Positions 36,001 to 59,649 of a DNA stretch of 64,000 bases are shown piece by piece. The notes under the pieces were generated by a model, which worked only from the letters and a program-made list of their open reading frames with translations, was not told where the DNA came from and made no database searches. How positions within the stretch are numbered: position 1 is the first letter of the stretch; the number at the start of each line of letters is the position of its first letter. The position numbers and the translations under genes are program-made. The stretch lies in assembly GCA_030264375.1 (NCBI GenBank), contig JASCQW010000119.1, positions 7,543,711-7,607,710 of the forward strand. Reading direction: 5' to 3'. The DNA is from Carcharhinus longimanus. Taxonomy: Eukaryota.

Positions 36001-36224
36001 TTTTAAAGGCAAATATTGCTAAGAGCCTCACACAAAATGCATAACATTATGCAAAATAACATTGAAATCTGATACTTTTGCCTGAAAAAAAAATCAGAGT
36101 AATCACTTTGACGATGTGTCATTTGAGTTTTAAATTCGTATTGTATTATCTGGGTTCTGCTGATGTTTTTTACGAAAATAGAATATGATCAAAGTCTTTA
36201 CTACATGTTTTTTATGCTCCACAG

Positions 36225-36245
36225 ACTTGACAAAGTGCCAATCTG
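36225..36245 (+). CDS. 21-nt heptad micro-exon B1, (D)LTKCQS
   Basis: tttatgctccacAG|ACTTGACAAAGTGCCAATCTG|GTaggg. Confidence 0.8.
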
Positions 36246-37289
36246 GTAGGGATGACGTCGATTCATTTTGACTGTCGTATTGGTTTGGTCTGTTTTATTT
36301 TGGCACGTGTATTAATTGATTGCACCAAGCTCTTTTTTTCATCCTATGTGCCAATCAAAAGATGAAATGTACGTTATCAAACTGATGACTCACTCGAAAT
36401 TGATATTTTCAGTGGAAGGGTGAAAGATTAATGACATGTTTGCATTCAGACGTACAATCGGCCTCAGTTATAGCGCGTCGGCAGCGTGGCATACATACAC
36501 TTTATTAGAATTCCGTACTGCAAGTGATGCGAAAGGGATTCCAAAATAAAACATATGATCAGCAAATTGGGCTAAGGAAAACGGAAAGACGATACGATCT
36601 GAAATGGCATGAAAACAGCACATCAAAGCTTGTTAGTACACGAGGACAGGAGAGGCAATGTTATCGGGGCGTCTTGGTAGTGATAGTTTCTGTGCATGTG
36701 TTTGTTTGCCGGGGCACACAGACGGGAGCGGTGCATTTCAGGTGGAAGCAGAAGAGAGATCCTTTATTTTTGTAGTGGAGACATTTCTATAAACAAAAAA
36801 GGAGATACTAAAAGACAAACGTGGAGACATTCATAAGGAGACGACGAGATTTTTTTTTGTTACAAATCAAATATCACATACAACAAATGAATTACGAAAG
36901 GTAAAGACGTCAATGCCAATACCCATCGATATACAAGGGCGAGCAAATCGGAATCCAAACTACATTCATAGTGCTCATTTGAAATTGTATTAATATATAT
37001 CGATTTATCGAAAATCTGAACATGTGATGAAATTCAACTCCACATAAATTTGAGAATAGTAGCCGATCTATTTAAGCCACACTTCGCTCTGCACCTCTTA
37101 GTTCCCCTGAATCAACGAGACTTACGCAAATACCGAACTTGTTTAGTTTGTTTATGACTATCATAATTAACCTTAAAGAAACACTGCTAAGAATTGACTG
37201 TGGAACTTCAGGAGCCGCCTTGCTGCGGCGACTGTTCAGATATAATAGATAGAATAGAAATAGAATACAGCACGGCTGATTGCATTAAG

Positions 37290-38220
37290 AGCCCTGCCTC
37301 TTATGGCTGTTGACACAGAGATGAGTGGGAAAGCAAATTGGGTGGAGGACGCAGACTTGGATAGGCTGAGTGACTGGGCGAGGATCTGGCAGATGGAGTA
37401 TAATGTTGGCAAGTGTGACGTTATCCACTTTGGAATAAATAATAGTAAAATTGACTATTATTTAAGTGGTGATAAATTACAACATGCTACTGCGCAGAGG
37501 GACCTGGCGGTCTTTGTGCATGAATCACAAAAAAAAAAATCTCGGTTTGCAGGTGCAGCATGTGGTCAAGAAGGCAAACGGAATGTTGGCCTTTATCGCG
37601 ATGGGGATGGAGGATAAAAACAGGGAGGTCTTGCTGCAATTGTACAAGGTACTGGTGATGCCGCAACTAGAGTACTGTGTGCAATTTTGGTTCCCTTAAG
37701 GATATATTGGCCTTGGAGGGAGTGCAGAGAAAGTTCACCAGATTGATACCAGGGATGAGGGGATTAGCTTATGAGAAGACATTGAGTAGCTTGGCCCTGT
37801 ACTCGTTGGAGTTTCGAATGCTGAGGGGAGATCATATAGAGACATATAAGATAATGATGGGGCTAGACAGGGTAGAGGCAGAGATATTATTTCCACTTAG
37901 AAGGGAAACAATAACTAGAGCGCACAACCTCAAAACAAGGATGAATCAATTTAGACCAGATTTGAGGAGGAACTTCTTCTCTCAGAGGATAGTGAATCTT
38001 TGGAATTCTCTGCCCATAGAAGCAGTGGAGGCTACCACGTTATATGTGTTTAAGTCACAGGTATATAGATATCTGATCAAAAAGGGAATTAAGGGTTATG
38101 GGGGACAGGCGGGTATGTGGAACTGAAACACTATCAGATCAGCCATGATCTTATTGAATGGCGGGGCAGGTTCGAGCGCTGGATAGCCTACTGCTGCTCC
38201 TATTTCTGATGTTCTTATGT
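37290..38220 (+). mobile_element. 5'-truncated CR1 inserted in unit 1 of the array, splitting the old SINE
   Basis: ORFs 37303-38126 (DLDRLSDWARIWQMEYNVGKC, LEYCVQFW, RRNFFSQRIVNLWNSLP); absent from the paralogous site at ~41090. Confidence 0.93.
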
Positions 38221-38910
38221 TTTCAGATTGTGGGAGGAAACCAGTGTAGTCGGAGAGAACCCACGCAAACACAGGGAAGACTTGTAGGCTCCACAGGGAC
38301 AGTGAGCCAAGTCGGGAACTGAACGCTGTTACATTATATTTTGAGGATTTCACAGGAACTACTGTGCCAATGCGTGCCATGACCACATGTCTGAATGAAA
38401 ACAAAATCCAAACAGGTAATATACTTGTATCAGGTATCTTCTGCTTGTGCACTTATTGGTAATGCACAAGTACTCGAAAACTAGATCTCACTTTTGAACA
38501 TTGGAGAAGAATGCAATTACATTAACAAATTTACACCTGACTATTCAGTTGACCCGGAAAATACAATTGACATGATTACTCAATAATTGCAAAGTTGTGT
38601 TTTTCAATTTATAGATCTAAAAAGAGCATTTACAAGAACATATTGATCTAAAAAAAGCTCTTCAAAATGCAGTCTCTGAAATTGGAACACTACGTCCATT
38701 TTTCTATGACATTGTTTCCAATGAAGTCACTATAAATTATTCAATATAATAGTGACAAATTGGAGGCACAATAAACCAATTCTCCTTTATTTTTCAGTCG
38801 TTGTGTTAATGCTCAACCTTGGATTTACGTTTTATATTGTTGGGTATTGTTTGACAATAACAAAATGAAAAATATGTCGATGCTCACACGAGTGTTTCTA
38901 TGCTCCATAG

Positions 38911-38931
38911 AACTTGCAACACGCAATTCTG
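38911..38931 (+). CDS. 21-nt heptad micro-exon B2, (E)LATRNS
   Basis: tatgctccatAG|AACTTGCAACACGCAATTCTG|GTaagg. Confidence 0.8.
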
Positions 38932-39416
38932 GTAAGGAAGCAAACACAAAAATCCGACAACTGGATCTTGGGAGATATCAGTAGAGTTCATCGGACGTAT
39001 CAAGTGTTCTAATTGCCTGACAAGAAGGCACAAAGTGTTCGAACATCAGGCTGTTTGCAATGGACACTTCATTGTTGGCCCAGACGAATAGATTCTATTC
39101 CTGTATGTTTGTCGCAATTTGGCGCCTATGGGTTTCTCCAGAGATACAGAATAGGAACCTTTATTTTGACGTCTGAAAACCAAGCAAAATCCATCGAGAG
39201 ACTATATTAAAAAAGTAAATATGAGTACTTAATAATGTTCTGTTATCTAAATCGCTGACCTAATGGATGCTCAAAGAAGTTATACACCTTTTGACTATTT
39301 AACATGAAATTTGAGCTGTGTATTTCGTTTTAATGTATTTGTGCTGTTACTAATATTCCAAAAAAAAACCCAAAATCTGTTCTCTACCTTATACATATAT
39401 ATCTTATGCATCACAG

Positions 39417-39437
39417 ACCTGTCAAAGTGCAGAAACG
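39417..39437 (+). CDS. 21-nt heptad micro-exon B3, (D)LSKCRN
   Basis: gcatcacAG|ACCTGTCAAAGTGCAGAAACG|GTagga. Confidence 0.8.
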
Positions 39438-40212
39438 GTAGGAAATTACCAATCCATTGTGGAATATATTGATAATGACTGTGTCACTTTCGGAGAGATT
39501 GTACCTGAGTTACGAAAAATGCAATTTAATGTGTGTCTATATATATACTTAGTCTTTCAATTTCTTTACAAAGTTGTCATGCGTCATTGATGTACGTCTA
39601 AAAATTTCACTGAGAGCTGAACTGTTGAATACCGTTTTCATCGAGAATGTGAAAGGGTGAAAGAATGACTGATTGATAAGTGAGTTGTGGATCTTTAATA
39701 ATCAGAGAGACGAGTGTTTTTTATGCGTACGCAGTCTGAGATGTGAACGTGAAGTTTACGAACAAAGAACTACAAGTAAAGACACATTTTCAAGCTGGTA
39801 GAGATGACCTCGATTCATTTTGTCTGACGTATAGGTTTAGTCTTTCTTGTTATGGCATATGCGTTAATTGCACTGCGCCAAATATTTTTAATTTCCTATG
39901 TCTAAGCCGGAAGATGAAATGTACGTTCTCAAGCTGATGGCTCACTTTATTATTATTATTTTTATTGGAACGTTGAAAAACTAACAACATGTTTATATTC
40001 AGACTTCCAATGGACTTCAGTTATGGGGCGTTGGCACTGACATCCCATGTATTTTCTTAAAACTCTGCACTGCAAGTGATGCGAAAGCGAAAGTGATAAA
40101 AAATAAATATATGATCGGCAAATTGGGCTAAGGAAGACAGATAGATTACGTGATCTGAACTTGCATGTAAACAGCACATCAAAGCCGTTTAAATGCACGA
40201 GGACAAGAAAGA

Positions 40213-40547
40213 CAGTGTTACCAGGCTGTCATGATCGCGATAGTGCACGTGCATTTGTTCGTGTGGCGGGGCACACAGGCAGTTTTACCAGGATGTCTTG
40301 ATACCGATAGTGTGTGTGCATTTGTCTGTTTCGTGGGGCACACAGGCGGTGTTACCAGGATGTCTTGATAGCGATAGTGTGTGAGCATTTGCTTGGTTAG
40401 CGGGGCACATAGGCAGTGTTACCAGGATGCCTTGATAGCGATAGTGCGTGTGCATTTGTTTGTTTAGCGGGGCACACAAGCGGTGTTACCAGGATGTCTT
40501 GTTAGCGATAGTGTGTGAGCATTTGTTTGTTTAGCAGGGCACATAGG
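40213..40547. repeat. Minisatellite, 5 x 67 bp
   Basis: Units begin at 40213, 40280, 40347, 40414 and 40481 (c[a/g]gtgttaccaggatgtcttgatagcgatagtg...ggggcacacagg). Confidence 0.95.
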
Positions 40548-41799
40548 CGGTAACGGGGATTTTGGAAGAAATAGAGAGACCTCTAGTTTTTTTTTTATTT
40601 GTAGCGGGGAAATTTCTATGCACAGGCAAGAAGCCACTGACAGACAACGGTGGAGACATTCATAGTGAAATGACGAGAGTATTTATCACAAATCAAACCT
40701 CATATACGGCAAATTAATTATGAAAGTTAAAGACTTCAATGCTATTACATATTGATATTGGGAGGCTGAGAAAATAGGAATTCAACAGACATTCAAAGCC
40801 GCTCATTTGCCTTTTATTAATATTTATGCGAGCGAAAATCTGAACATGTGATGAAGTTCAACTCTACGTACATTTGAAAGTAATAACACATCCATTTAAG
40901 CCACACTTCGCTCTGCACCTCTCTGTATTCTTGAATCAACGCGACGTACTCCAATAGCGATCTAGTTTAGTTTATTTATCACTCTCACGATTAACCTTAA
41001 ATGAACACTGTTGTGAATTGACTGTGGAACTCCACGAGCCGCCTTACTGCGGCGACTGTTCAGATATAATAAATGAGAATAGAACACGGTCATTGGAATT
41101 TAGAAGCACGCCTTTCAGGTCGTAGGTGGAAACCAGTGCAGCCGAAGTGAACACATGCAAACACAGGAAGGACTTGCAGGCTCAACAAGGGCAGGTGAGC
41201 CAAGTCGGGAATTAAACACAGTTGCATAGCATTTTGAGTCTTCCACACGTAATACTGTGCCACTGTGCGGCATGAGCTTACGCCTGAATGAAAAAAAATC
41301 AAATATGTAATATATTTGTATCATTTATCTTGCACCTGTGCACTTATTGAAAATGCACAAGTTCTCGAAATCTCGACATCACTTTTGAAAATTAGATGAA
41401 AAAGCGAATAAATTAACATAGCTACTCCTAACTGTTCAGTTCACCATTAAAACATGATTGACATGATTACTAAATATTGGTTAAGTTGTGTTTTTTTTTA
41501 CCGTTATTGGATCGGAAAACAGCATTGCCAAGAACATATTGAAATAGAAAAAAAAACTTCAAAAATCAAACTCTGAAAGTTGGAACACAACGTTTTTTTT
41601 TCCTGTCGCTTTGATTGCAATGAACTCACTCTAAATTATTCAGTATAATCGTGACACATTGGAGGCATAATAAAGCAATTTTCCTTTACTTTCCAGTTAT
41701 TTTCCCAATGCCGAACCTTGGATTTACATTTTATGTTGCTGGGTGCTCTTTGACTATAAAGCATGTAGATTCTCACACAAATCTTCTCATGTTCCATAG

Positions 41800-41820
41800 A
41801 ACTTACATCATGCAACAAAG
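41800..41820 (+). CDS. 21-nt heptad micro-exon B4, (E)LTSCNK
   Basis: catgttccatAG|AACTTACATCATGCAACAAAG|GTaagg. Confidence 0.8.
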
Positions 41821-42298
41821 GTAAGGAAGCAAAACAAAAATCCAATAACTGAGTCTCGGGCGAAATTAGGAGAGTACGAACGGTCGTGACAAGTTCTCTT
41901 ACTGCCTGGAAATAAGGCACAGAGTGTTGGATCAGCAGGCTGTTTGCAATGGACTCTTCAGTCTTGGCTTCGAAGGAGAGATTCTATTTATCATTGTTTG
42001 GTGCAGTTTGGCGCCTACGCGTGTCTGCACAGATACAAAATAGGTACCTTTATTTTGACGTATGAAAACCAGTAATCATCCATAGTGAGACTGTAAGAAA
42101 ACGAATACTAAATAATGTCCTGCAATCTAAATCGCGGACCGAAAGAATGGTCAAAGAAATCATACACATTTTGAATATTTAATTCGAAAATTGACTGTTT
42201 TATTATCTCTTTTTATTCTTCTGGGGCTATTGTTAATATTCCTAAGAAAACTGAATCTGTTCACGACGCTGACTATGTATATATTTTGTGCATGACAG

Positions 42299-42319
42299 AC
42301 CTGGCAAAGTGCAAAAGTG
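42299..42319 (+). CDS. 21-nt heptad micro-exon B5, (D)LAKCKS
   Basis: gtgcatgacAG|ACCTGGCAAAGTGCAAAAGTG|GTaaga. Confidence 0.8.
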
Positions 42320-44316
42320 GTAAGAAATACAGAGTCCATTATGGAAGCGACTGTGTCATTTTCGGAAAGTTTATTCCTGAGTTATGCCGAATATATATGT
42401 ATTTAATGTTATAAATTTAATAATTGGCAGGGCATCAATGGCTTTACCGAAGTTGTCATTCGTCATTGATGCAAATCTAAATGTTGCACGGAGAGTTGAA
42501 CAACGTTTTCATCCAGAATGCCAAAGATTGAAAGAATGACTGATTGCTAAGTGAGTTGTGGAACGTTGATAGTCAGAGGGACGAGTGCTTTCTTTACTGC
42601 GTGCACAGTTTGAGATACGAACGTCAAGATTACAAACAAAGAATTGCAAACAAAGACTCAGGGCCAAGCTGATAGAAATGATCCAGATTCATTTGTACTG
42701 TTTTCCCCCGTTCCATTGTGGCTTATGGACTTAGTGTATTATGCAAAAAAACCCATAATATATACTATATATATATTCTACCTGTATGTCAAACTATGAA
42801 AGGTATATTATCAAACCGATGTCTCACTCTAAATTGCAATTCGTCAAACCGTTAAATGTAGAGCTAAGTGCCGTTTTCACTCGGAGGATGGAAGATTGAT
42901 ACACATGTCTGCATTCAGATTTACAATTAACCTCAATAATGACGTGTTGGCAGATTCACTTTCTTCAGCCTCTATATTGCCACCGATGGGAAAGTGAACT
43001 TGATACACAGACACGGGCAAATGCAGAGGGAGAGACAGAGTGCTATCCGAAAAAGAGTTTTGATCAATGATGATGTGTGCACATTGGTATGTATGACAAT
43101 GTGCGTGGGTAGTGCTGAGGCTGCTAAATTGGAAACATTTTGTGGAAACATTTTGTAATGGACTCAACAAGCGATTGACACGTAATTGTGGAGAGAGAGA
43201 GACAGTGAGAAGGCGATCGCGTTCGTTACAAATCAAAAATTAGATACATCAATTGAATTACCAAAGGTAAAGAATTTTAAAGCATTACCCATCGACATAC
43301 TGAGTGTGAACAATGGGAATCCAGCAACCGTTCAAAGCTGTTCATTTGCCATCTATCGAATATTTAGAAATATAGAACAGAGAACCTGAACATGTTCTAA
43401 AATGCAATGCGTCCGAAATTTGAGACTAATTCTCTAGCCATTTAAGCCACAATTCACCCTGTACATCAAGACATTCTCCAATACTGATCCTTTTTTTTTA
43501 ACTGTCATAATTAAACATAAAATAACACAGGAGTGCAGTGACTGTGGAACTCCCCTGATCAGCTTATACCGACGCCTGATCTAACGACATGAGGGAGAAT
43601 GGAGGACGGCCAATGGATTTAACTAGCACATGTTTCCGACTGCGGGAGAAGTCAGAACAGCTGGAGGAAACCCACGCAAACACGGGGAGAACATGCAGAC
43701 TGCGGATGGACAGTAAGCAAAGTCATGAATTCAACCTGGCACCCTGGCACAGTGAGGCAGTCATCCTAACTACTATGCAACTGTGCATTCTTAGCATCTT
43801 TTTGAAAGGTAAAAGAAAGAATCCAGAGACACAATACATTTATATCCTCTTTACTGACCTTGAATATTTATTATTACAGAACACGATCCCAAAAATAACT
43901 CGACCTTTTTTTGAACTTTCGATGAGAAATATATTAATTTGATAAATTTTCTCCTGACCGTCCAGTCCATCTGTAAAAAAAAAATGGTTTAATCCCCAAT
44001 ATTGGTGCTTTTTTTCCCCGTTATTGCACCCCAGAACAACAATATCAAGAACGTATCGAAATCAAAATTGCTTCAAGTTGGCAACGCTACATGCATTATT
44101 CTGTTGCTTTATTTTCATTGAAATCGTTATACATGACGCAACATATAGGTGCTCAATTCGACGCATCATCAAACTGTGTGAATCTTTGTAATGTACTTTC
44201 CAGTTTCTTCGTCAATGTCCAACCCTGGATGCCTGATTCTCAGTGTTGGACGTGTTTTTATCTGACAAAATAGAATATATGCAGATATTCACAAGTCTTT
44301 CCTTGTACCCTCACAG

Positions 44317-44337
44317 ATCTAGCAAAGTGCAACAGTG
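44317..44337 (+). CDS. 21-nt heptad micro-exon B6, (D)LAKCNS
   Basis: gtaccctcacAG|ATCTAGCAAAGTGCAACAGTG|GTaagg. Confidence 0.82.
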
Positions 44338-44810
44338 GTAAGGAATCACTGATAGGGAAATAGATAACCGGATATTGGAAGAAATAGTAGAAGTCGATTG
44401 GGGATGACAAGTGTCCTTACCGACTGGCATCAAGGCTCATTGGCACGAGAAGCAGAGTGTTGGAGCAGCAGGTTTTTGACAATGGGCTTCTTCATTATCG
44501 GCCTGGGCGAACAAATGCAGCATCCTTGACGACTCGAGGTCACACCAAAGCTAGAGAATAGATACCTTTAGCCCGAGGCATGAAACCAAGGCACATGCAT
44601 GGAGAGGCAAAAAAAAACGAGTACTTAATAAAATCTTGCAATCTAAATCTCTTACCTAATGAAAATTCAACGAAAATGCTCGAATTTTAGCGACCTATCA
44701 TCAAATTCGAGTTTATCAATTTCTCTTCACTGCAATTGGGCTCTGATTAATGTTCCTAACAAAACAGAATGGGTTCATTGTACTGATTGGATGTATCTTA
44801 AGACTCACAG

Positions 44811-44831
44811 TGCTGGCAAAGTGCAACAATG
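44811..44831 (+). CDS. 21-nt heptad micro-exon B7, (V)LAKCNN
   Basis: agactcacAG|TGCTGGCAAAGTGCAACAATG|GTaggg. Confidence 0.78.
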
Positions 44832-46269
44832 GTAGGGAACAAGTAATTCAGTATAGATTATGTTGATAGAATTATTTCAGTAAAGATATATTGATACCTT
44901 ATATTGACAGAGAGTTTTAAAAACGTTTCTTCTTAAATTATGCAAACTATTTTTGAATGTCTGTATGTAAAAAAAAAACAGAGTATCAAATTGATGGCTC
45001 AAGCGAAGTTGACATTCCTTATTACTATAACGTTCTTCGGCGAGTTGAATGTCATTTTCATTGAAAACGCGAAAGGTTGAATGAATGCCTGATTTCAACA
45101 CTTCAATGTAGATGAGTTGTGGATCTATAATAGCTTGAGAGACGAGTATTTATTTTTTAATCCGTGCACAGCATAAGATGTTAGGTTGGTTGCAGACGAA
45201 GAAAAGAACATATTGAAGAAATGAGCTTCATAAAGGGGAAGGAGATTATCATTTCGTAATGGCAGACTCCCTAGGGTCTTAAAAAGAGATAACAATAAGG
45301 ACATTAAGGTGTAAAATGCCTCAGATAAAGATAAGCTGTATGTTTGTGTGTACTTGTTTTCAAGTGGTTGGGAAGCGTACGGTAGTGGCAAAGGTACAAT
45401 GTCAGAAATGTAGGAAATAGGTTAGAACAGGAGAGAGAACTGTACAATCTATGAATCAAAGAAATAAATAGACACGTAACCTATAGCTGCCCACAGTTGT
45501 GGAGGTCAATGCATATAGAGAGATAACTACCATGTTCATCAGATAGCAAGCCGCTGATACAATGAAATGATGCGTTAATATTTATAATTAGGCACAAAGA
45601 ATGATTGTAGGAATACTTATACAAGTTTGAACATCGCATGTTGTTAACTGTCAGATGGTGAGCAGAAAATTCATAACTGTAGGATGAAATATCTATTTGT
45701 TTTAAAATGGCAATGAATTCCTTGAACATGTACTCAACTTCAATGTCTACGCAAATGAAATGGAAATTGTTCACCCATTTAACCTACAATTCTCTGTAGC
45801 TCTTTCTACTATAAAAGGCAGGAGGCATGTTCCTTTCCAGATTACCTTCCATCAGGGGAGAAACAGAATTTTCAGATACGCAAAGTGTGTGTTCTGTTGT
45901 CACGAGATGGAACTCACCTGAGTTACCTCCAAAACATCTCAAAAATCTATTCTCACCTTTTGGCAAGCTAATTGAGAAACAATATTCCATAAATGCTGCT
46001 GCTTGTTAAGATTCATTCAAACAGCCATAACTTTGGCTTAGTTATTAAACACTGCTGCAATTTAATGAGATCTCAAAAAAAATTAGAAAAAATTAAATTT
46101 TCCTGAGGAAATCACAGCCGCCTTCATTATTTTACGCCCACTTCTTGTTTTCCCCTCTCCGTTCATTTTCTTTGCCGAAGAATTCACGACAAACAATACG
46201 ATCCCATCATTGTGAAAGCGGATGCATTTTCAACCATGAGTAATAGAAATTTACTCCTGTCTTATCCAT

Positions 46270-49200
46270 CCGCTAGGGGGAAAATTGGTCCGTCAGCCCA
46301 AGATCTGCATTCTGGCCTGCTTTTGCCACTAAGTTACTCCCAGTTCCTCGCGTTTGGGCCTTATCTCCCTCCACCAAGTTATCCATTTAACAGCTTAAAG
46401 GCTTTTTAAACTACAAAATTGTAGCCTCCTCAATGGCAACTCTCGGAACTCATTCCAGACATCCCCAACTCTCCAAGTGATACATCTGCCCTCTGTGTCC
46501 TTTTGTTTTGTTCCCCTCTCACCTTAAAAAGCATGTCCTCCATGTTTAAACTCCACTGTTTTTGGAAGAACTGTTGACTGTCGACCTCATCTGTGCCCCT
46601 CATCATTATTGAGACAACCATAAAAACTTCCCTAAGCCTGTCACGCTCCACTGAAAGAAAAGAAGCCGACCCAAATCTATCCAAACTCTACTTAGAATGC
46701 AAACCATGAGATCCGTCTAGCATCCGAATAAGTCGTATCTGCACTGTTTCTAGTTTAATAATATCCTTTCAAAAGTAGTGCGACCCGAACTCCACATGGT
46801 ATTCCAAGTGCGCTGTCGCAAGTTTTTGTAAAACTTTCAAAAATCACCCTAACTCTTGCATTCAATGTCGTGACCAATGGTACCAAGCCTGAATTCTTCA
46901 CCACCCTATCCACCTGTGACTCTGATCTCAAGGACCTGTGAAACTGTAGACCTGTATTTTTTTTTAAAATATTCTCCAACTCTGATCAACGCCTTACCAT
47001 TGACTGCGTACTTTCTGCCCTCCTCCATCAACCAAAATGCATTACCTCACATTTCTCTGCCCTCCACTCCCACTGCAACAACTGCTCAAGATCGCGTTGC
47101 AATTCTACATGACCTTCTGCGCTGTTCAGGATATTGTCAATCTTGGTATTATCTGCAAATTTAGTAACCATTCCTCCTAATATGTGACCCAACTAATTAC
47201 ATGAATAGCAAATAACAGTGGAATCAGCATCAATCTCTGAAGCAAACTACAAGTCACATGCCTCCAGTTTGAAGAAACTTTTTTTTTATAAACACTTCCT
47301 GTCTTCTGTCATTAGGCCAATTTTGTATCAAATTCGCAACATCACCTGGCTCCAGTGAGAATTAACATTGTGCAATAATCTGCCATGTGCCACCTCGTCA
47401 ATGTCCTGCTTAATTTCATGCAGGCAACGCCGACTGCAATGACCGAATATACCTTCTTCGCATGAAACTTAAATCAATTTCGTGAGACACGTTCTTCCAC
47501 TCACAAGGTCATCTTGCCTGGCCCAGTCCGTCCTTGTTCTCTAACTGTCGTTATGGTATATTTCTCTCAATCCTTCTAATAACTTATCCACGACAGACGT
47601 TAGGCTCAATGCCCGTAGTTTCCAGGATATTCGTTGCAATCTTTTTTTTTAAAGGCACAACACTTGCCACAGGACAATCGTCAGGCACCTCGCCCCTGTC
47701 TGTGGGTAAGTCAAATAACTCCGCTCGGGGAGCCGGAGTCTCCTCGTGAGAGTCCACAACTTCCTGGGATACATATCCCCTGGTCTTCTATGAGCACATT
47801 TCTAACTTGATGTGGTTTAAGACTTCGAGCACGCCCTTCTTCGTAATGTGTATACTCCTCGATCAACACATCAGTGTTTATTTTCCAAAGTTACAGAAAA
47901 TGTATGTCTTTCGGTAAGTAAATATTGATGAGAAATATGCTTTGAACATCTTAACATCTCTTGTGTATCAGCACGCAGGGATATTGATGATCAATAAAAC
48001 ACCTATTTTCTTCCAAGTTACTCATTTGTGACGTATGCATGTTCAGAAGCTTTTTCATATTCTCTTTAGCATATCTGAGAAAACAGGCACGTGTCTAGTT
48101 TTTGCCATTCTCATTTTTCCCTTAACTCTCTTCCGAGACCCTCTACACCCTTCATGGAATCCATATAATCACAGCTGTCTATGCACGGCATATCCAGTTT
48201 TCCTGTGGAAATGCCGGCATTGGACTGGGGAAGGCGCAGGAACAAGTCCAACAGGTTTATTTGGCAGCCCCAGCTTTCAGAGTTTCAGGCACATTTATCA
48301 GGTGAGTGAGGACATGTATTCACAAACAGGTCATATAAGGACACACATTCAATTTAGAAGATAATGGTTGGAATTTGTGTCTTTCCATATCATCAAGTCT
48401 TAAAGGTACAGACGATGTGCGTGGTGAAAGGGAAAAATCAGAGGTTAAAGGCATGTGTATTGTCTCCAGCCAGGACAGTTAGTGAGATTTTCCAAGCCCA
48501 GGTGAGTCGTGGTGGTTACAGATAGCGTGACATGAACCCAAGGTCCCAGTTGCGGCCGTCCTCATGCCTGTAGAACCTGGCTATCAGTTTCTTCTCAGGG
48601 ATGCTGCGTTGTTGTGTGCCATGAACGCCGCTTTGGTGACTATGTACCCGCAGATCGCTTTACCTCGAACCCTGTTTAGCACATTTATTGAAAGCGTCCC
48701 AATTATCAGGCTTAGATTTGTTTGCCAGGAGGTCCTCACAATCAACTTTTAAAAGTTACTATCTAATACCATCACAATTGGTCTTCCACCAAGTTAGAAT
48801 GATCACGTTTGTGGCAGACCTACTATTTTTCATTGCTAAAAATTAATGGCCATTGGTCCCACTGACTGCGATCTGCCCTTCATTATTTCCCAAGCGGAAG
48901 CCAAGCTCTTCACTCTCAACTTGGGTCATCCAGACACTGAACAGGAAATTCCTCATCAATATATTCAACAATGTTATCTTCCTCCCAACCTCTTATACTA
49001 TGCTGCCCCAGCTAATGTTGGGAATGTGAATGCCCCCCTACAGTTAACACCCAATGATACATGGAGCAACCTGTAATCTCCTCACATATTTACTCCCCAA
49101 TTTCCCGCTGACTATTGATGGGGCTACAACACAATCCTATCAAATTGGTATCCCCTGTCTTATTGATCGGATCTACCCACAGAGACAGAGTGCGCTAAAT

Positions 49201-49750
49201 CCTCAGAAATGTCCCCTTTCAGGACAGCTGTGATATCCTCCCGAAGCAGCAATGCAACTCATCTCCCTTTCTTACCTTTTGTTCAATATTTCCTGGAACA
49301 TCAATGGCTGGAAGTTTATTCATCCACGCCCTGAGTTGATTTGCCTTGTCCTGCAGGACTCCTGCAATGAAATGCATTTCATTTAATCAACACTTCCCTG
49401 ACTCTTCACCTACATTTTCCTAAAGTGCCTAATGTCGGATTGCTGCTCTGACCTCTAATGTTAAACCTGCACTTTTCAACTTCCATGTTGTCCTCAGCAT
49501 TTCCTTCTGTCTCCTTATTGCTTTGTCTCCTAAAACTTCACCAAGCTATGTTAAACCTTCAGATTCGCAAGTGGAAATCTCCCTACCTGGTTTTTAGCCG
49601 TCCTTGTATTTAAATGTCACCCGTCCCTCTTGAGCATGTCTCAGAAGAGGTGTCAATGATCAACACATTTATGTATCTGTCCCGAGAACCAGCTCTCAGG
49701 CTACGCATTCATCTGCATAATCGCCATACGCCTACTGTGGCAGTAATCCA
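46270..49750 (-). mobile_element. Long degraded CR1 (3' UTR back to the ORF1/ORF2 junction)
   Basis: Antisense CR1 text throughout, e.g. ORF 46755-46979 LRSESQVDRVVK; endonuclease region at 48900-49300. Confidence 0.75.
48200..48657 (-). mobile_element. Penelope-like element 3' fragment (GIY-YIG C-terminus plus pseudo-LTR) nested in CR1
   Basis: Minus strand reads DLRVHSHQSGVHGTQQRSIPEKKLIARFYRHEDGRNWDLGFMSRYL*; terminal aagtccaacaggtttatttgg and atgccggcattggactggg motifs. Confidence 0.8.
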
Positions 49751-50417
49751 GATTGAAGCCGTATTCTTAATTTAAAGTTCGTACTTCAAATTCTAGTTGT
49801 GGTTGTTGATCGTTATTGTTCATCTTTCTTTATGCCGATAACAAAACAGAAAACAAAACACAAAATTTTTACAAGTTTTCCATTATTCTCCTCAAAACGT
49901 TCGACGTGGATACTGGTGACGAACTAAAACATTGATGACTTTGTCGTGGAGCGCCTGACAGGGTGCAGCGTGTGATTTTTCCTAAATCTAACCACAAAGT
50001 GTGTTGACAATACTTTTAACACGAATTAAACATCTCTAATTCGGGTTTCAGTGAGTATCTCAGACCTATTTGGAGTGGTAGTGAATGCCGGCTAGTTTAC
50101 TAGTGCAACAAACCTCAAGATAAACTGAGGTGCACAACATTAAATGGCAGTGATTAGGTGATGATGCACAACATTACACTGGGCAACGTATGAAGCTTAC
50201 GTATGCAGAGTACAGTACTATTGTGAGAGACTCAGAAATTCTAGCGAATGACATTTCTTAAAGGTGAAAAACGCTTACTTTTAGCAAAAAAATAATTGAA
50301 ATGACAGTTGTTAGGAAATTGTTGTGGATCTCTCTTCCAGAACACTGACGATCCCCAAGATGTCGTACACGCACTTTGAGCGTTGTGTTCAGGATAATGT
50401 TGACATCTGCAAAGTGA

Positions 50418-50500
50418 CGTGTGTGTGTGTGTGTGGTGTGTGTGTGTGTGTGTGTGTATGGGGGGGGGGGTGGTGGGGGAGGCGAGTGTGTGTGTGTGTG
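50418..50500. repeat. Compound (GT)n/G-rich microsatellite
   Basis: Direct reading; other simple repeats at 21615-21645 (TCTG), 24731-24763 (CG/CA), 25511-25533 (GT), 54440-54466 (AT), 58283-58317 (ATT). Confidence 0.9.
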
Positions 50501-51599
50501 TCGGGGGTGGGAGGGTGGTGGAGGGGAAAAAGGCATCCACACAAGCTCAGTTTTCATTGCGTACTCATAATGGCCTTGGTGCCTCTAAGTGTCTTCCTTG
50601 GCCATCTCAGTAAGCAGTTGAAAGTCAACGAATTTGTATTGCTCTGCAGAACCGTAGATCCATGTAGATGACACCAGTTCAGGACAACAGACTTTGTTCT
50701 CTCATGACATGAGTGAACCAGATATGTTTTCATTCATTTGACTATAGCGAATTTACATCAGTAGGTTCTTACTTCCAAACTGATTTTTTTTAATTCAAAT
50801 GCCAAAAGCGGATGTGTCGGGATTCAATACCAAATCCCCAGAATATTCGTTGAGTTTCATGATCATCATTCTCGTGATACAGTACGTTGCCGTTACAGAA
50901 TCGTGAGGAACAGAAACTGTGAAATGAATAACGATGTACAAATGAAAAAAAAAATCTATTTAAAATGCAATTGGAAGTGGTTACACTTGTCTTTTTAGAT
51001 GTTTGCGTTGACAGTGGGTCATCCGGAAGCACGCAAAATGGAAACAAAAATTACCGAGGAGTGTGGTCAATGCGCACAGAACAGCCACCAGACCTGAAAA
51101 CCGACGAGGAGCTTCAGCATTAAGAGTGAAGTGATGAACCTTGTTAGAAATATTATTATATTTGGAATGTTACACACAAGCAGACAGGTAGATTGGATTA
51201 AATTTGAACAGTAAAAGAGAACATTATTTCTCGCACAGTTTATGTATGCTATATATGTATATATATATATATTCTATAGTTAAATAGGGAGTAAATAGTT
51301 TTGTTATACTTGTGCTGGTATTGCAGCGCGTCCTTTTTTTGTCATTGTCCATGTGCTACTCTCCGACTTTCACTCACGAAACAAAGCCACGTTTTTACTG
51401 AAGGTTTAAAACGCTGACAAGAAAGCAAACTGACCAAATTTCCATTTCGGTATATACAGTACATTCTAAACTGTACACTGGATCGTTCAATGTAAGATAT
51501 TCACGCAGAGACAACTCTCACATAAAGGGCATGATTTTGTTGCGTTGAGCAGATTGCAAACTCTTCGTTATGGCAGTTTCAATAAAGCGCTTTTCAATA

Positions 51600-51831
51600 A
51601 AGTGATCAAGAAGGCAAATGGAATGATGGCCTTTATAGCGAGGGGGGTAGAATGTAAAAGCAGGGAGGTCTTGTTGCAACTGTACAGAGTACTGGTGAGG
51701 CCGCAGCTGGAGTAGTGTGTGCTGTCTTGGTCGCCGCACTTGCGGAAGGGTATATTGGCCTTGGAGGGAGTGCAGAGAAGGTTCACTAGGTTGATACGGG
51801 AGATGAGGGGGTTAGCCTATGAAGAGAGACT
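51600..51831 (+). mobile_element. Young CR1 fragment running into the gap
   Basis: KANGMMAFIARG..LYRVLVRPQLE..SPHLRKGILALEGVQRRFTRLI. Confidence 0.93.
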
Positions 51832-53189
51832 NNNNNNNNNNNNNNNNNNNNNNNNNNNNNNNNNNNNNNNNNNNNNNNNNNNNNNNNNNNNNNNNNNNNN
51901 NNNNNNNNNNNNNNNNNNNNNNNNNNNNNNNGAAGGAAATTGAGGAGCAGAAGTATTGTATGATTGCAAATGAAAATACATGTCAAGGTCATGAAGCTGC
52001 AACATGATTTAAAATGCCATGCTGGAAGAATAAAGCTATACGGTTTGCGTAGTCATCGATATAGACCAAAGGAGTATTGTACAGTGCTGATGTTCAAGTA
52101 GATCACAATTATTTTCCTTTGCGGCATAACAGCAACGGTTATCACTAAAAACATGAATGTAAGAAATACTGACAAAAAATATTTAAAAAAAAATGATTTT
52201 GCCAAGTAATAGACAAATAAACCGAAGAAGATCTAGAATAAACAAACAAATGAATATAACGCATTGGAACAGAAATAATTCTTAGCGGATCCACTGGAAA
52301 CATGTTTGAAAGTCCCAGCAAACTAGAAGGTGTAATTAAACTGCTCGACACAGAAGCAAAGGACAGAAGACAAAAAAAAAAATCCACAAGTAAAGTGACC
52401 TGCTGGATGGTCCTAAATCACGTATGTGAACTTCAGAAAATGTGCTAATAGGGAAGCTTTCCTGGACAAAGTCCTCGAGCAGTTCAAACTTTGGACATTT
52501 TGGCACTGTGAGCACGGTTTAGACACAATGGAAGAAATAATAATGCAACTCAGATGCGTTTAGTTTCAGTTTTCTTCCAATATGTACTGTATCCTTCTGA
52601 GTCTACCGATTTCTGTGAAGAATTGCCAGTAATGAAATACAACCGTGACAAGGAAACTGGGCTTGTACTTGGGATTAAATCAGGATCAAGAGGAAACAAA
52701 GATTTTGAAACGGGAAAAGAAACAGCTGAAAAAGAGCAGCGTGTGGACAAAAGAATACATAGAAAACATGGTTGTTGATGGTCAATTTAAATGTTTATCG
52801 AGGAAGAAGAAATATTCAATTTTGGCGTGAAATGACTTCAAACGAACACACTGTTGTTTTATTAGCCGGATTTATTTTAATAAAATATGCCTATATATTG
52901 TAGAACACTAAGAATATGAAATCAGAGTTTCTGAAGAAATCTTGCAGGTTCTTTTTTTTTTGGGGGGGGGAGGGTGGCTGGTGGGGTGGGGGGGGATGTT
53001 TGTTGGATGTGCCGATACTTTGTCTTTACAAAGCATACTTAACACTGTATTTCTAGTTGAGGATGTGCACATACAGCAGCTCTATTTAACAATGGAAAAT
53101 TACTACCAGTAACAAACTTCATGATGGGCATGCAGAAGGACAATTGTTCCTATTAACGTGTGCGTTAATTTTAATCTGAACTCGTACAG

Positions 53190-53921
53190 TGTGTAATACT
53201 TAGGATACCTACTGCTTTTCAGAGTAGTATTGAATTATGGTGAGGTTCATGTGAACATCTGGATTTATGCTAATTGCCAGAGAAGAAAATAAAACAAGAG
53301 GCTGTTACAGTTTCCAACTCGGACAGAACAATAACAATTTCTATGTCGTTGTTCCTCTATGTATTTCTGGAAGTTGAAGTCTAGGACCAGCTAGCAAAAT
53401 TGAATCTCTCTGCCGAAGAGTGAAAAGTTCAAAAGTGATTGCACCTTATCCCCACCCCTCTCCTTCTGTCGTGAGTCATGCGTTGTGAGGACAGCTTAAT
53501 CTTTATCTCTGGAGTTCCTCTCTTTGTGACGACAGCTCGTTCTCTGAAGAAGACTATGTGAGAATCAGAAGGCAGATGTCCAGTTATACTTCTGCCTAGG
53601 TGCGTTAAGAGACTGGGGTAGAGGCTAATGGCATAAGTCTGTGTGTTGTCCGAATCGATTGCGTAGAAGTTTATGTCTGTAGAATATTACTTACCATATC
53701 ATATTTAAATAATTCATTTCGTTAAAAAATGTACATCTTTCTGTTCTGTTTCAATTGTGTTGTGAAATAACGATTGTTTCAACAATAACTTCCGAAATTG
53801 ACTGTTGAATTACACGTGGAAAGTAACCCGTTATGTTCTTACTAATGTCTAATTCAAGTAAATGTTTGGCATTAGTTTAACATAATTAAACATCTTAGGA
53901 CTTCTGATCCGGCGGCAAACA
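53190..53921 (+). mobile_element. Possible eroded solo LTR
   Basis: Starts tgtaatac, ends ..ggcaaaca, LTR-like composition; no TSD found. Confidence 0.3.
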
Positions 53922-55259
53922 TATTGATACACACATAATAGTGACGCGAAAATATGGGGAAATACTTAATGTTCATAACTCAACAGAGAAAGATGGAGTT
54001 AACAAGGCGGATTGCCCTTTACGCAGAGAAAAGTTTCGTTTTTTTTTTAATTTAATTTCGCTAATATGCTATCTTTTCGAATTTTTGAAAAAAAAAACAA
54101 ACCCAACGCATACATTTTACTGATTGTACGCAATTGAAGAAGGTTCCTGGGCACATATTTTTTACTGTCCATCTTTTTTTTCAGAGTTAGCATTTAAGCC
54201 TCAACATTTAATCGAAACGACTTCCGTTATGTTTCTGCAGTTTAAAGCTATTTAGAAAGCTTTCCTTGCTGCAGTTACGATCATTGCGAAATTGTATCAT
54301 ATGGGAGATATCGCAGCTATGAAAAACTGTTCTGCTACGCTGTGAAATGAAACGAACATCTGAAGTCAGGCATTAATGTTTAATGTATTTAATATTTACA
54401 CTGTTTAAATGGTGCCGGTAAGAAAAGCCCAACACAGAACATATATATATATATATATATATATATGTACCTCTGCGTCGTTCAGTGAGAAGCTGGCAAG
54501 CTGTGCCTCCATTTGACTTGAATCAACCTAACGACTCAAATCAGAAGGTCGCTGCTTGTTTCGGCATGGAGCTATCTAATTTGTTAAAAAGTAAACTATT
54601 TTTAGGAACACTAACTGAACTGGTTATACAGACATCATTATTGCTAACACGTTCCAAGAAAAAAAACATAGTATTTACCTGATGGTGATTCTGTGAAATG
54701 GTATATCTCCGGCAACAAGTTTTTTGTCAAGCATTGCCAGCAGATTTCCAATCACAGCTATCTCTACAGGGCCAAGGGCGCAATGAGTCCGAAAAAAAAA
54801 GTAAAAGCTTAATTTGCATTTTAGACTTTCAACGAGACAGGTAGTTCAAAGCAAATATGTAATTCCAGATTTGTGTTCTAGAAACAAACTTATTTGGTGT
54901 CAGTGCAGGTTTTTTTTTCTAAATAGGAGCAGAAGTCAGATTGTTCCGTTTAAATAGTCGCAGAAGTTGTGTGTCCCAAAATTGATTCGGGACATTTAAT
55001 GGATAATAAGCAGTTGAAGGATCAAACTGTACTAACTAATGGGAAGTGCTATCAGCATGAGTCTCTGCACCACATCCGAATAATGACCAGTTAAAAAGTT
55101 GCACTTTTCAACATGTGTTGAAATATACAATGTTTACAGCAAATTCGCGCCCAGAAATACATATTATAAATGCGTATCAAGCCCACGGGCTAACGTGAAC
55201 GAGCACAATTGTTGTTGGATAGAAAGGCACAATAATGAACATTGGGTTTTGAGAATGAA

Positions 55260-55990
55260 AAACTGGAAGCAGGAGGAGAATATTGGACCCTTCGCTCTGC
55301 TCTGTCATTCGTTTTGATTATTTGAAAACACGAGGTTTGGGGATGTTGCTCCTCGCTCAGTTGAGGGACTCACCTGAGGAAGTCGCAGCAACCTGAAAGC
55401 ACTTGAGTCTATATAAATCTGCTGGGCTCTAGTCTGGACCAATGAGATTCTTACTATTTCCATTTTGATCAAGGGTGATCATCGAATCCAACATCCTGAC
55501 ACTCGCATTCACTCATGACCCTTGATCACTTCAGACCGAACAGCAAATTATGTTGTTTCTTCTGAAATCAGGCAAGATTGAGGCCTCAACCTCCTTCGGT
55601 AGCAGTCAATTCCAAAAGATTTGCCACCGTCTGGATGAAGAAATGTATCATCACCTCACTTCAAATTAGGATATCCCTTATCCTCATCTATGGCCCCTAC
55701 TTCTGGACACCCCCACAATTGGCAACATTCTTTCTGAACTTAACCCGCACAACACTGTTAGATTTGTATATGTTTCGATGAGATCCGCTCTCACTATTCT
55801 AAACTCCATTGAATATAATCTTAACTGATTAAGGTTCTCCTCATGTGACAGGCCTACCATCCCAGGAATCAGCCTGGTAAAACCTTCCTTGTACGCCCTC
55901 TGGAGTCAGGACATCCTCCCTCAGATTAGGACACCAAAACTGCACAATGAATGGCCTCTAGCGGCCCTAGTTTAAAGCTAAAAATCCCTA
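55260..55990 (-). mobile_element. CR1 3' fragment containing an inverted pair of Penelope pseudo-LTR pieces (55320-55455)
   Basis: Antisense CR1 3' text; cacctgagga..gaaagc preceded by its diverged reverse complement. Confidence 0.65.
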
Positions 55991-56645
55991 TTGTCAACGG
56001 CTATCACACAGCCTAAAAAACGACATCTGAAAGATATCACTGTGTCTTCAAGCTGATGTACAAAATTGCATTTTAACGTTGTTGCGGAATGTATATGATT
56101 TCAAAAAAAAAAATGAAATGGTCTCTCTTCACAGATACTGACAGGACTGATGGATTTATCCCATATTTTCGATCGTCTTTAAAAAAAAAATCAATTCTCA
56201 GTCTTCCAGTTGCTGAGACACAGAACAACTGATTACCCCGCAAAACAATCTAATTTCCATTTTCAATTCTTCGTAGTGGAGGATTTTTTTTTTTTTGAAA
56301 CTTTTGGGGATATCTCATTTCCATCACTTCGTGGATGGATTTTCAGATGATTGCACAAATCATTGTGGATATTTACTTTTCTTCGTGATAGTTTTAAAGA
56401 CATTAAATTTATACTTTGGATTTTATTGTACGCACCCTCAATGGCGTTATGTCCACCAAAGTCGTATGTTACTGTACTTTCTCGGAAGTCGAAAAACAAA
56501 GAGATAATGAAAACATCTTAACCTCACAAAATATTCTGATGAAAAATGCAATGCATTCTCAGCAACATTTCAATCAATCGACAAAATTGAATTTTCTAAT
56601 TTGCTTTTCTATCGTTTGTTTGTTTGTGATGTTTCCACCACCTAG

Positions 56646-56666
56646 ACCTGAAGAAGCGCACCGATG
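56646..56666 (+). CDS. 21-nt heptad micro-exon C1, (D)LKKRTD
   Basis: tttccaccacctAG|ACCTGAAGAAGCGCACCGATG|GTaagg. Confidence 0.75.
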
Positions 56667-56774
56667 GTAAGGCTGATTTAAACTCAACATTTATTTGCCT
56701 CAAATTAATATTGCCTTTTTATTGGCAACAAAGATTTCTGCCATGTCAATTTATATTGCTATCTACTGTGTCGT

Positions 56775-57010
56775 CTGTGGCAAGGTGGCACAGCTGGTAG
56801 AACTGCTACATCACTGCACAAGGGACACACATTCGTTTCTGACTTCGGGTGAAGGCCTGTGTGAAGTTACACACTCTTCCAGTGACCGTGTAGAATTTCT
56901 CCGGGTGCTCCGGTTTGTACTCAATGTTCCGGTGAGGTAGATTGGCAATAGTATTTTGTCCCTTAGTGTCAGAGGAATTGACATGGCAAATCCTTGGGGC
57001 TACGGTGATA
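56775..57010 (+). mobile_element. Eroded tRNA-derived SINE
   Basis: gtggcaaggtggcacagctggtagaactgct head; ttctccgggtgctccggttt core. Confidence 0.7.
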
Positions 57011-58238
57011 CCTAGATTTATCTGTGCATGGCCTTGTACTAATTCAATGATACTACATGTCATAAAGTTGGAAGTCTCTAACTATACAGCAGAATTAAAT
57101 TGTCAATCAGTTATTCCTACAGAGACCAGAGAATAAAGCCAATTAAGGCAGAGGATAAGGCTATCCGGCCCTTCCAGGCCTGCAACTACTTTGCCACCCG
57201 ACAGATCTAAAACCATTTACCCTTCCAGGAACGATGTAGCTCTATTCCCATCATATTCATTGATCTGACTGCGAATTCCAGGCACCCACTACCCGCTCTT
57301 AAAAAAAATCTCGAACTTCCAATGTTGGGGTAAAAAAAAACGCTGACAAAAATAATTACACAGAAACTGCGGCAGCTTTGTCAAACTGACCAATTCGCAA
57401 ATGCATCAACACAAAAGTTTAAAAGGTGTAAATAACAAAGAATTGTGGAACTGACGAATGGATACTAAAAAAAAACTTTCACCTCGGAGTGGATGGACTG
57501 TAATTGGAAAAAGAGTCAACATTCTTCATTAATTTTCTTCAAACACGACCTTAAATGTTCTCAGCACAGATCAATTGCAGAGGGATTAATATGCCGCAGT
57601 TTAACGAGGGGACCACGTTACACACTGAAATCACAATCTGGAAATTCTGATTGCTTGTCTTCCTTTCAGAGAGTCGACATTCTGCAGTTCCCTCGAATTA
57701 GAGTTTATCTCTGAACTGATGTTGTCACTTCTGATTATTTATAATGCACGATTAATTGTGCTGCTCTTGATTCAACACTCTCGCAAACATGGTGTTCCCG
57801 ACAGAAGTGAAAGATTACACTGCCTCTCAGATGCAACACAGCATACTTAATAAGTGATTGCAATGCAATTCACCAGGGTGATGTAAATGCCAGAAAATCT
57901 GAAATGTTATACTGACATCGGTCATATTATCCCTGTTGAAATTGTGTTGATCATATCATGATAGCACCAAGGACGCTATGACGTAAGATTGAACGGGGAA
58001 CAACACCTTGTGACGTGTTAATAAAAAATCCCTTATCAATTTGTTGCAAACGCATTGTGCTGGATAAAAAAAAAAAATACTGTTATGAACCATGCCGCTT
58101 GAGCCCTGCCATTTAGCTTTTCCTTCCTTCTTCAAAATTCAGTCGAGGACTAAGATTTTACGTCAATGGATTCAGTTTGATTCGCTTAGAAATGTAATAT
58201 CTTCAAAATGTTCTCCTTAATTCTCTTCTTCCTCACAG

Positions 58239-58259
58239 AACTGACGAAGTGCCAAAGTG
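58239..58259 (+). CDS. 21-nt heptad micro-exon C2, (E)LTKCQS
   Basis: ttctcttcttcctcacAG|AACTGACGAAGTGCCAAAGTG|GTaagg. Confidence 0.85.
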
Positions 58260-58572
58260 GTAAGGAAATTCTAAAATGTACTATTATTGTTATTATTGTT
58301 ATTATTATTATTATTGTAATATGAAATCGGGGCGACAGAACGGTGGAACGTTCTCCCATCATAAAGAATGACATGATATTTGTTCTGCACACAACTATTG
58401 ACAATGTGTTTTTTTATTGCATTAATACCAATATCGTTATGATTTTGGCAGAATATTGACTTAATACATGAGTGGAACAAAACTGAATGGAGGCCTGTAC
58501 ATAATATATTTACATCATTTGGAGAATGCAAATATATTGAATTGTATGCAGTGATCTGATTTATTATCATAG

Positions 58573-58778
58573 AGAACTACAACAGACAGCAGCAAGATTC
58601 GTATATTGACAGGCAAATTCACAAATTGTCGTGCAAACTGAAGGACATAGATGAAAAACTCATTGGGTCAGCTCAAAAGTCTGTTAAGGACAGAGCGACA
58701 GAAACATATTCATCATTGAGCAAGAGAACACAAAATGTGCTAGCACAGTTTGATAGAACGCGGGCCAGGGAGTCCTAA
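58573..58778 (+). CDS. Candidate terminal exon after the last micro-exon (68 aa, helical/charged)
   Basis: tttattatcatAG acceptor; the phase-1 frame is open to TAA: ENYNRQQQDSYIDRQIHKLSCKLKDIDEKLIGSAQKSVKDRATETYSSLSKRTQNVLAQFDRTRARES*. Confidence 0.45.
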
Positions 58779-59412: not shown

Positions 59413-59548
59413 TCAAACTCCACAGTAAAAAGTCTGACAACACCAAGTTTAAGTCCAACCGATTTATTGGACTTAAACCTGGTGTTGTCAGACTTTTTGC
59501 TGTGTTTACCCCAATCCAACGCCGGCATATCCATTTCAAACTCCACAG
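59413..59548. mobile_element. Minimal palindromic Penelope-terminus insertion with 13-bp direct repeats
   Basis: 38-bp arms at 59421-59458 and 59467-59504 (2 mismatches); tcaaactccacag at 59413-59425 and 59536-59548; ccaacgccggcat motif shared with 48205-48220. Confidence 0.75.
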
Positions 59549-59649
59549 CCAGTTTACCGCTAGAAATGTCACGACATCCAAAAATCAGCGTGACATCCAT
59601 TGACTGTCATCCTTCGGATCCGCCATAAATGACATATTTTGCACTGGAC

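Follow-up and report, generated by a model that had tools for sequence, protein, structure and literature searches.

Nine 21-nucleotide (nt) exons in a 64,000-nt stretch of the Carcharhinus longimanus genome (2.68 Gb; contig JASCQW010000119.1, here C119, positions 7543711-7607710; the whole stretch is called the window) each encode one heptad of a coiled coil, with Leu at position a and, in most, Cys at position d. The resulting stripe of cysteines is real and, judged from sequence, lies in the core. It is most plausibly a structural residue multiplied by duplication, in an unusual, giant gene of BG/butyrophilin-like type. The reading that we prefer, at a probability of about 55%, is that Cys is a small core-packing residue in a giant cytosolic coil, that the stripe is the footprint of exon duplication, and that oxidation could cross-link the chains. 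Window positions count from its first letter, upstream offsets are negative, and all splicing is read from DNA only. The nine exons are as follows:

36225..36245, + strand: 21-nt phase-1 heptad exon, Leu at a, Cys (TGC) at d.
38911..38931, + strand: 21-nt heptad exon, Leu at a, Arg (CGC) at d; a duplicate of the exon at 41800 by intron homology.
39417..39437, + strand: 21-nt heptad exon, Leu at a, Cys at d; a duplicate of the exons at 42299 and 44811.
41800..41820, + strand: 21-nt heptad exon, Leu at a, Cys at d.
42299..42319, + strand: 21-nt heptad exon, Leu at a, Cys at d.
44317..44337, + strand: 21-nt heptad exon, Leu at a, Cys at d.
44811..44831, + strand: 21-nt heptad exon, Leu at a, Cys at d.
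56646..56666, + strand: 21-nt heptad exon, Leu at a, Arg (CGC) at d; its duplicate outside the window, C119:7617148, carries Ser.
58239..58259, + strand: 21-nt heptad exon, Leu at a, Cys at d; its duplicate outside the window, C119:7620686, is without an AG acceptor.

The exons were recovered by scanning for 21-nt units between AG and GT and with a profile built from the nine copies, and they bear out the pattern described in the initial annotation. Leu is invariant at heptad position 2 (9/9 exons, through four codons, TTG, CTT, CTG, and CTA); codon 5, three residues later, is TGC in seven of the nine; and the two exceptions, the exons at 38911 and 56646, have CGC (Arg). The reading frame is upheld as well, since splicing the nine exons in phase 1 leaves no stop in 62 codons, while phases 0 and 2 leave four and five. 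The codon split across exon junctions, position g, encodes Asp or Glu at 7/8 stripe junctions, and Lys occupies position c, just before codon 5, in 7/9 exons. In the 924 kb around the window that were read, 101,643 N included, well-flanked candidates on the + strand number 56 of 21 nt (53 of them open in phase 1), 53 of 27 nt, and 34 of 36 nt; on the − strand the counts are 10, 11, and 20, and each control length gives about 13. The Leu-x-Lys-Cys exon pattern has ten matches in the genome, six in this array of micro-exons and four on unplaced contigs, and a reversed-pattern control has none. Because of the + strand excess, and because the pattern matches are confined to the array and the unplaced contigs, the nine stripe exons are not a product of chance.

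The spacing of the two residues is that of an a/d pattern: Cys follows Leu by three residues and the next Leu follows Cys by four. In the alternative register, in which d is Leu, polar residues would fall at a. The 36-nt exons of the array (32 candidates) have the same arrangement, as follows. Codon 2 is aliphatic (L, I, V, M, or F) in 24/32 and codon 9 in 26/32; codon 5 is aliphatic in 16/32 and Cys in 7/32. Since codon 5 is aliphatic or Cys in 23/32 of these exons and charged in 0/32, Cys is placed in the core; on this register, codon 5 is a true d position, at which Cys alternates with Leu, Ile, Met, and Val. The proposal that Cys lines the oligomer interface at d is thus backed by the stripe spacing and by the register of the 36-nt exons, and nothing in the sequence puts the cysteines on the exposed face.

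The nine copies are not nine independent choices of Cys, since, by homology of introns and flanks (flank divergence 0.29), the Cys exons belong to a small number of duplicate families. The features concerned are the following:

36300..44900, + strand: tandem segmental duplication units holding exon pairs, at a spacing of ~2.5-3.8 kb, with pieces 68-88% identical.
6436..12726, + strand: five upstream 21-nt exons of the common array, at 6436 (Val at a, Cys at d) and at 7775, 8614, 10171, and 12706 (Arg/Thr at d).
23462..23482, + strand: a copy of a Cys-at-d exon with donor GA in place of GT, probably dead.

The stripe extends ~34 kb past the end of the window, where six more copies lie at C119 7.614-7.642 Mb. 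Its distribution was followed in 45 curated 21-nt exons, that is, 41 strict candidates less five (-71463, -10657, 19666, 28526, and 48281) judged to be chance or repeat-derived, plus nine found by the profile or by a looser score. All 15 Cys residues encoded by the 45 exons are at d, as are 11/16 in the unfiltered list. Between 36 and 100 kb, Cys is at d in 11 of 15 exons, against 4 of 30 elsewhere (2/14, 2/6, and 0/10 by part of the 21-nt block). The stripe is local and most likely a product of tandem duplication. Where d is not Cys, its codon is one step from a Cys codon (TGY) in 11/30 cases, compared with 17/180 at b, c, e, and f (p 0.0003), an excess that suggests an ancestral Cys at d that was often lost. 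CpG decay of Arg (CGC) was considered as the source of Cys and set aside: most copies have Cys and the window is rich in CpG (observed/expected ratio, o/e, 0.66), so that Cys loss is the simpler account, although the change could have run either way.

The fate of Cys after duplication is in keeping with a replaceable residue. Cys is kept on 7/9 duplicate pairs, where the neutral expectation is 46-62% (p 0.27-0.056, assuming 18-28% divergence). Arg, Ser, and Gly at d break up the run, and two Cys exons have a broken splice site. Of the paralogue lying at C119 9.80-9.94 Mb, four 21-nt exons were found, and they have Ser, Ser, Trp, and Gln at d. As side observations, a 63-nt candidate exon with a phase-1 in-frame TGA lies at 39735-39797 and has a donor-dead twin at 42609-42671; the pair sits where duplicates of the exon at 36225 would be, and it could be a truncating exon such as those of BG genes. 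The window also holds a five-copy 67-bp minisatellite (40215-40551) and a 95%-complementary inverted duplication (25772-26902).

We propose the following mechanism. The nine exons would form one stretch of a very long coiled-coil rod, encoded by phase-1 micro-exons, probably cytoplasmic, and most likely capped by a divergent B30.2 domain. Each exon would supply a heptad in which a is Leu, d is Cys, and the split g codon is mostly Asp or Glu. Cys at d would serve as a small uncharged packer, swappable with Leu, Ile, Met, or Val as it is in the 36-nt exons. An old Cys-at-d exon would have been copied repeatedly by tandem duplication of units of one or two exons, lengthening the rod as in the tails of chicken BG proteins. 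Most thiols would stay free in the reducing cytosol; in a rod that is a parallel dimer, cross-linking under oxidative stress could arise as a by-product.

Several observations weigh against a purely structural role. Retention of Cys on 7/9 pairs compares with 5/27 at the surface positions b, e, and f (p 0.002), and codon-5 Cys recurs in 36-nt exons of the array gene and of its paralogues on C119 and C81 (6/10 genome-wide matches, control 0). These two observations make some selection for Cys itself possible. In addition, a run of five Cys-at-d heptads might make a dimer weaker, and a compensating function would then be called for. In the PAN coil, consecutive d-to-Cys changes seemed disturbing (PMC6006169).

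The first two of these observations would suit a selected thiol ladder, also in a cytosolic rod, in which the Cys pairs of the d layers act as a reversible redox zipper (in a dimer) or as three-Cys metal sites (in a trimer), stiffening, shifting, or clustering the rod and tuning the B30.2 head. The confinement of the curated Cys residues to d speaks for such a ladder, as does the use of TGT, not TGC, in three copies. Cys cross-links readily at d and not at a (PMC6006169), and designed three-stranded coils with Cys layers bind Hg, As, and Cd, although HgS3 at d is described as the least favoured site (PMC11212059). We nevertheless regard a selected ladder as unlikely. Retention is not significantly above the neutral level, residues other than Cys (Arg, Ser, and Gly) interrupt the run, two of the Cys exons are apparently dead, and the 21-nt exons found in the paralogue are without Cys. 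The thiol functions first suggested (disulfide, metal, or redox) are thus not required by the data.

Outside the core, positions b and f change faster between duplicates than the flanking introns do (15/28 first- and second-base changes at each, p ~0.006, uncorrected), the pairs compared, from the window, L004-L007, and L101-L103, being not fully independent. Diversifying selection on the rod surface is possible. It is tempting to go further and picture an immunoglobulin (Ig)-less, megabase-scale micro-exon family of cartilaginous fish that sets B30.2 heads on giant rods, in which the core Cys ladder seen here would be a length-tunable redox or metal zipper and b and f would diversify under selection; we hold this larger picture to be doubtful.

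The gene in which the stripe is embedded extends far beyond the window:

1..64000, + strand: the window, internal to the array gene, whose 27/36-nt blocks run from ~7.28 Mb to beyond 8.12 Mb and whose putative terminal B30.2 exon is C119:8528663-8529183.

The array comprises at least ~128 exons of 21, 27, and 36 nt across >850 kb. A catalogue of 128 non-overlapping phase-1 exons, which has some chance entries and misses some real exons, translates into 1135 Lys/Glu/Leu-rich residues and no stop. Its 21-nt block lies between -137 and +201 kb from the window start and is flanked by 27/36-nt blocks that reach from ~-266 kb to beyond +580 kb. The B30.2 exon at C119:8528663 is in phase 1, matches the SPRY profile (E 1.2e-13), and is preceded by 27-, 36-, and 21-nt exons. 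The stripe and this B30.2 exon are likely to share one transcript. The last 400 kb before the B30.2 exon were sampled, with few exons in four 8-kb samples, and there may be several genes instead of one across the array.

The B30.2 exon at 8.53 Mb has five relatives, so that six related, divergent B30.2 exons lie in C119 6.33-11.29 Mb, along with micro-exon arrays whose strands match theirs. The exon at 6.33 Mb is preceded by matching 36-nt, 21-nt, and Trp-starting 27-nt exons; before the exon at 10.68 Mb, no micro-exon was found on its strand in the 7.7 kb read there. The paralogue that ends at 10.68 Mb has a like order, with 21-nt exons at 9.80-9.94 Mb followed by 36-nt exons with Cys at codon 5 at 10.2 Mb and then B30.2. 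Among the 100 of 109 matches to the 36-nt exon pattern that were listed (control 90), at least 16 are in C119 6.33-11.25 Mb, on strands matching those of the B30.2 exons, and at least six are on C81 92.1-94.2 Mb, adjoining a BTN/TRIM cluster. We note that C81 92.0-94.3 Mb carries a second, similar array next to this butyrophilin/TRIM cluster. In a tree with 14 BTN-labelled and 19 TRIM-labelled rows, no shark BTN among them, three of the C119 B30.2 domains form a long-branched clade of their own (100/100), outside the sampled BTN and TRIM sets. A search with the B30.2 among proteins of 302-2000 residues gave no close shark homologue and no natural homologue over the full length, only distant TRIM and BTN proteins at 24-43% identity, and a search of the ESM Atlas gave generic SPRY clusters only.

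Unplaced contigs C1021, C9584, C68428, and C68460 (L100-L103) carry more Cys-at-d 21-nt exons, two of which lie in segments that share 77-81% identity with the array, so the assembly probably lacks part of the array. Some further features of the array may be mentioned. In L062-L093, ~300-520 kb past the window, 36+27+27+27-nt exons form a repeating unit of 117 nt (39 residues), a non-heptad period, and the 27-nt exons there hold several Cys. Three 30-nt exons rich in Pro, Ser, and Thr, in L064, may encode a hinge. At the apparent 5′ edge of the dense array, L074:3999-4109 is a 111-nt phase-1 exon with a possible but unproven start Met, for which neither a paralogue nor a Pfam match was found.

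The domains that would tie such a rod to a membrane were looked for, as follows. A BTN Ig profile found no Ig exon in the 924 kb, where gaps and the unread 5′ region leave a divergent V domain possible, and no BTN-type Ig exon was found on C119 6.3-11.3 Mb (57/57 candidates scored, and a further 55 scored candidates); for the V-set, 150 of 928 candidates were scored. BTN-type Ig exons map mostly to C81, C99, and C105. Neither a RING nor a B-box was found in the 924 kb or on C119 6.3-11.3 Mb (150 of 312 and 150 of 277 candidates scored). No signal, transmembrane (TM), or Ig exon stands above chance in the array, TM-like candidates numbering three on the + strand and two on the − strand. A cytosolic rod is the likeliest compartment assignment, because no Ig, TM, RING, or B-box exon was found.

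The stripe might instead be extracellular or lumenal and form a permanent inter-chain disulfide ladder, in a protein with an upstream signal or TM exon that escaped the search, or one in which a hydrophobic exon, P0159 (C119 7.894 Mb), encodes a TM segment that splits an outer coil from an inner coil and B30.2. Tetherin and PLVAP would presumably be the parallels. Cys makes up 41 of the 1135 residues of the catalogue and favours core positions; P0159, an array candidate, has a long uncharged stretch and a strong donor; and the gene's 5′ end is missing, in a region that is gapped. However, TM-like candidates are nearly as frequent on the non-coding strand, sequons are not enriched (3 in the catalogue vs 4.2 in shuffles), and the B30.2 that follows heptad exons in butyrophilins is cytoplasmic (PMC4046983, PMC8813856). 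We judge an extracellular ladder improbable, and this option of the initial annotation found no positive support. The candidates that could have supplied an ectodomain or its anchor were examined in turn. P0159, taken as a TM exon, has no homologue, no Pfam match, and no clear paralogue, and the TM scan is at chance level; it was kept as a minor rival only. A tetherin/PLVAP locus, for which an N-terminal TM and linkage to PLVAP would be expected, was rejected, as PLVAP maps to C150 and no TM exon is above chance. So was the neck of a C-type lectin such as CD23 or CD209: no lectin match was found on C119 (119/119 candidates scored; split exons can escape), and the array leads to B30.2. The one Ig exon of the window, at 15496-15792, is the third Ig exon of HEPACAM2.

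The cysteines might also be palmitoylation sites that tack the rod to the inner leaflet of the membrane. Palmitoylation has been suggested for tail Cys of chicken BG (PMC5938342), and Lys at c precedes Cys in most stripe exons. Those BG cysteines are described as lying outside the hydrophobic stripe (PMC5938342), whereas codon 5 here is mostly aliphatic and never charged, hence buried. Palmitoylation fits such a buried d position poorly, and we consider it highly improbable.

The HEPACAM2 exon raises the question of how far the scaffold can be trusted:

15496..15792, + strand: third Ig exon of HEPACAM2, not of the array gene, probably misplaced in the assembly.

This exon is 96-97% identical to shark HEPACAM2 (97% to the catshark protein), whose two preceding Ig exons are on C132 and whose first exon is on C190. 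It lies in a CpG-poor island (window 14000-20000; o/e 0.18-0.42, vs 0.7-1.05 on either side). The ratio over the window as a whole, 0.66, and that across 800 kb, 0.5-0.9, are high for a vertebrate genome. An isolated nebulin-repeat exon, L099:4851-5297 (C119 ~8.465 Mb, + strand, Pfam E 2.8e-17), likewise lies inside the array region and is probably misplaced. Because the HEPACAM2 and nebulin exons are stranded there, the scaffold probably has foreign inserts.

The stripe could accordingly be largely untranslated as a run, its recent duplicates being skipped, dead, or mis-ordered in the assembly. The foreign exons are compatible with this, as are the two copies with broken splice sites and the in-frame stop of the 63-nt candidate at 39735; in BG tails, moreover, read-through and truncation are frequent (PMC5938342). 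Against it, all nine exons keep canonical AG/GT sites and an open phase 1 at ~29% flank divergence, with synonymous variation at Leu, and contigs of four public runs, labelled as three organisms, span 36150-44900 piecewise. Introns are covered in these four runs, as expected for DNA. The two other organisms differ at roughly 4-7% of sites over this interval; among the 40 listed out of 730 differences, none is inside an exon, where ~0.7 would be expected, too few to speak to selection. We regard an untranslated run as decidedly improbable, and return to the reading of a translated, duplicated structural residue.

How, then, does the shark gene compare with known systems? Chicken BG (the zipper protein) has a long coiled coil encoded by many 21-nt exons, 13-36 per gene in the B12 haplotype (PMC4046983). 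The shark gene is like it in this, in the split first codon, in variable exon number, in tail Cys, and in having its variation mostly outside a and d; selected variation outside a/d is described for BG tails (PMC4046983, PMC5938342). It is unlike BG in several respects. BG has an IgV domain, a TM segment, and no B30.2, whereas the shark gene has a putative B30.2 exon and no Ig or TM exon was found for it. The core of BG tails is at exon codons 4 and 7 (PMC5938342) and that of the shark gene at codons 2 and 5. The shark array also has more exons, at least ~128 of 21, 27, or 36 nt over >850 kb. The conserved Cys of BG tails and the Cys clusters of some BG genes are described as outside the core (PMC5938342), whereas those of the shark are in the core and periodic. 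The remark in the initial annotation that no BG/butyrophilin tail has such Cys thus needs qualifying: BG tails do have conserved and clustered Cys, though those described are outside the hydrophobic stripe. Our literature search, which covered few subscription papers and the BG papers without their figures and supplements, turned up neither shark genes of this kind nor a periodic stripe of core Cys in the BG/butyrophilin family; the accessible part of PMC11982570 has nothing on BTN tail cysteines.

Butyrophilins have Ig domains (IgV-IgC2), a TM segment, few heptads, and B30.2 (PMC8813856, PMC12841164). The shark array is like butyrophilins and ERMAP in its phase-1 heptad exons, the Trp-starting 27-nt exon (in the 6.33-Mb paralogue), and the phase-1 B30.2 terminal exon; it is unlike them in that no IgV/IgC2 was found, in its many more heptads, and in the placing of three C119 B30.2 domains outside the sampled BTN set, which had no shark BTN. 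It is unlike TRIM proteins in that no RING or B-box was found among the scored candidates. As to the assignment to a BG/butyrophilin tail, the heptad micro-exons leading to a phase-1 B30.2 exon speak for it, but membership of that family does not follow, because no Ig or TM exon was found. The shark gene would work like a BG tail fused to a butyrophilin-type head, while failing the Ig tests of both as far as tested. A further relative in design is enterophilin-1 of the guinea pig, which we take to be a cytosolic extended leucine zipper with many heptads, a B30.2 end, and no Ig or TM. It is presumably far shorter than the shark rod and is not known to have a Cys stripe. A role of enterophilin-1 with SNX1/EGFR has been described (PMC13749957).

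Single natural Cys residues at d occur in the coils of CEP135 and KIF21A (PMC6146289), and d-position Cys pair readily in parallel dimers (PMC6006169, PMC6146289). The shark stripe is like CEP135, KIF21A, the engineered PAN coil, and the designed TRI peptides in having Cys in the d layer, a placement that can give inter-chain disulfides or metal sites. Unlike CEP135 and KIF21A, with a single Cys in the fragments described, it runs through up to five consecutive heptads, and 11/15, with one exon per heptad.

The stripe would thus be a natural counterpart of the Cys layers that designers place at d, made by exon duplication, and it offers a test case for whether a stack of Cys in a core has a structural or a sensory role. 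Should Cys do no more than pack the core, the stripe would be a real but modest detail of its host gene. The larger point is the host gene, an exon-per-heptad BG-like rod several times the length of a chicken BG tail, apparently capped by B30.2, for which no Ig was found. This gene would link the BG design, a long heptad tail with no B30.2, with the butyrophilin design, a short tail with B30.2, in cartilaginous fish.

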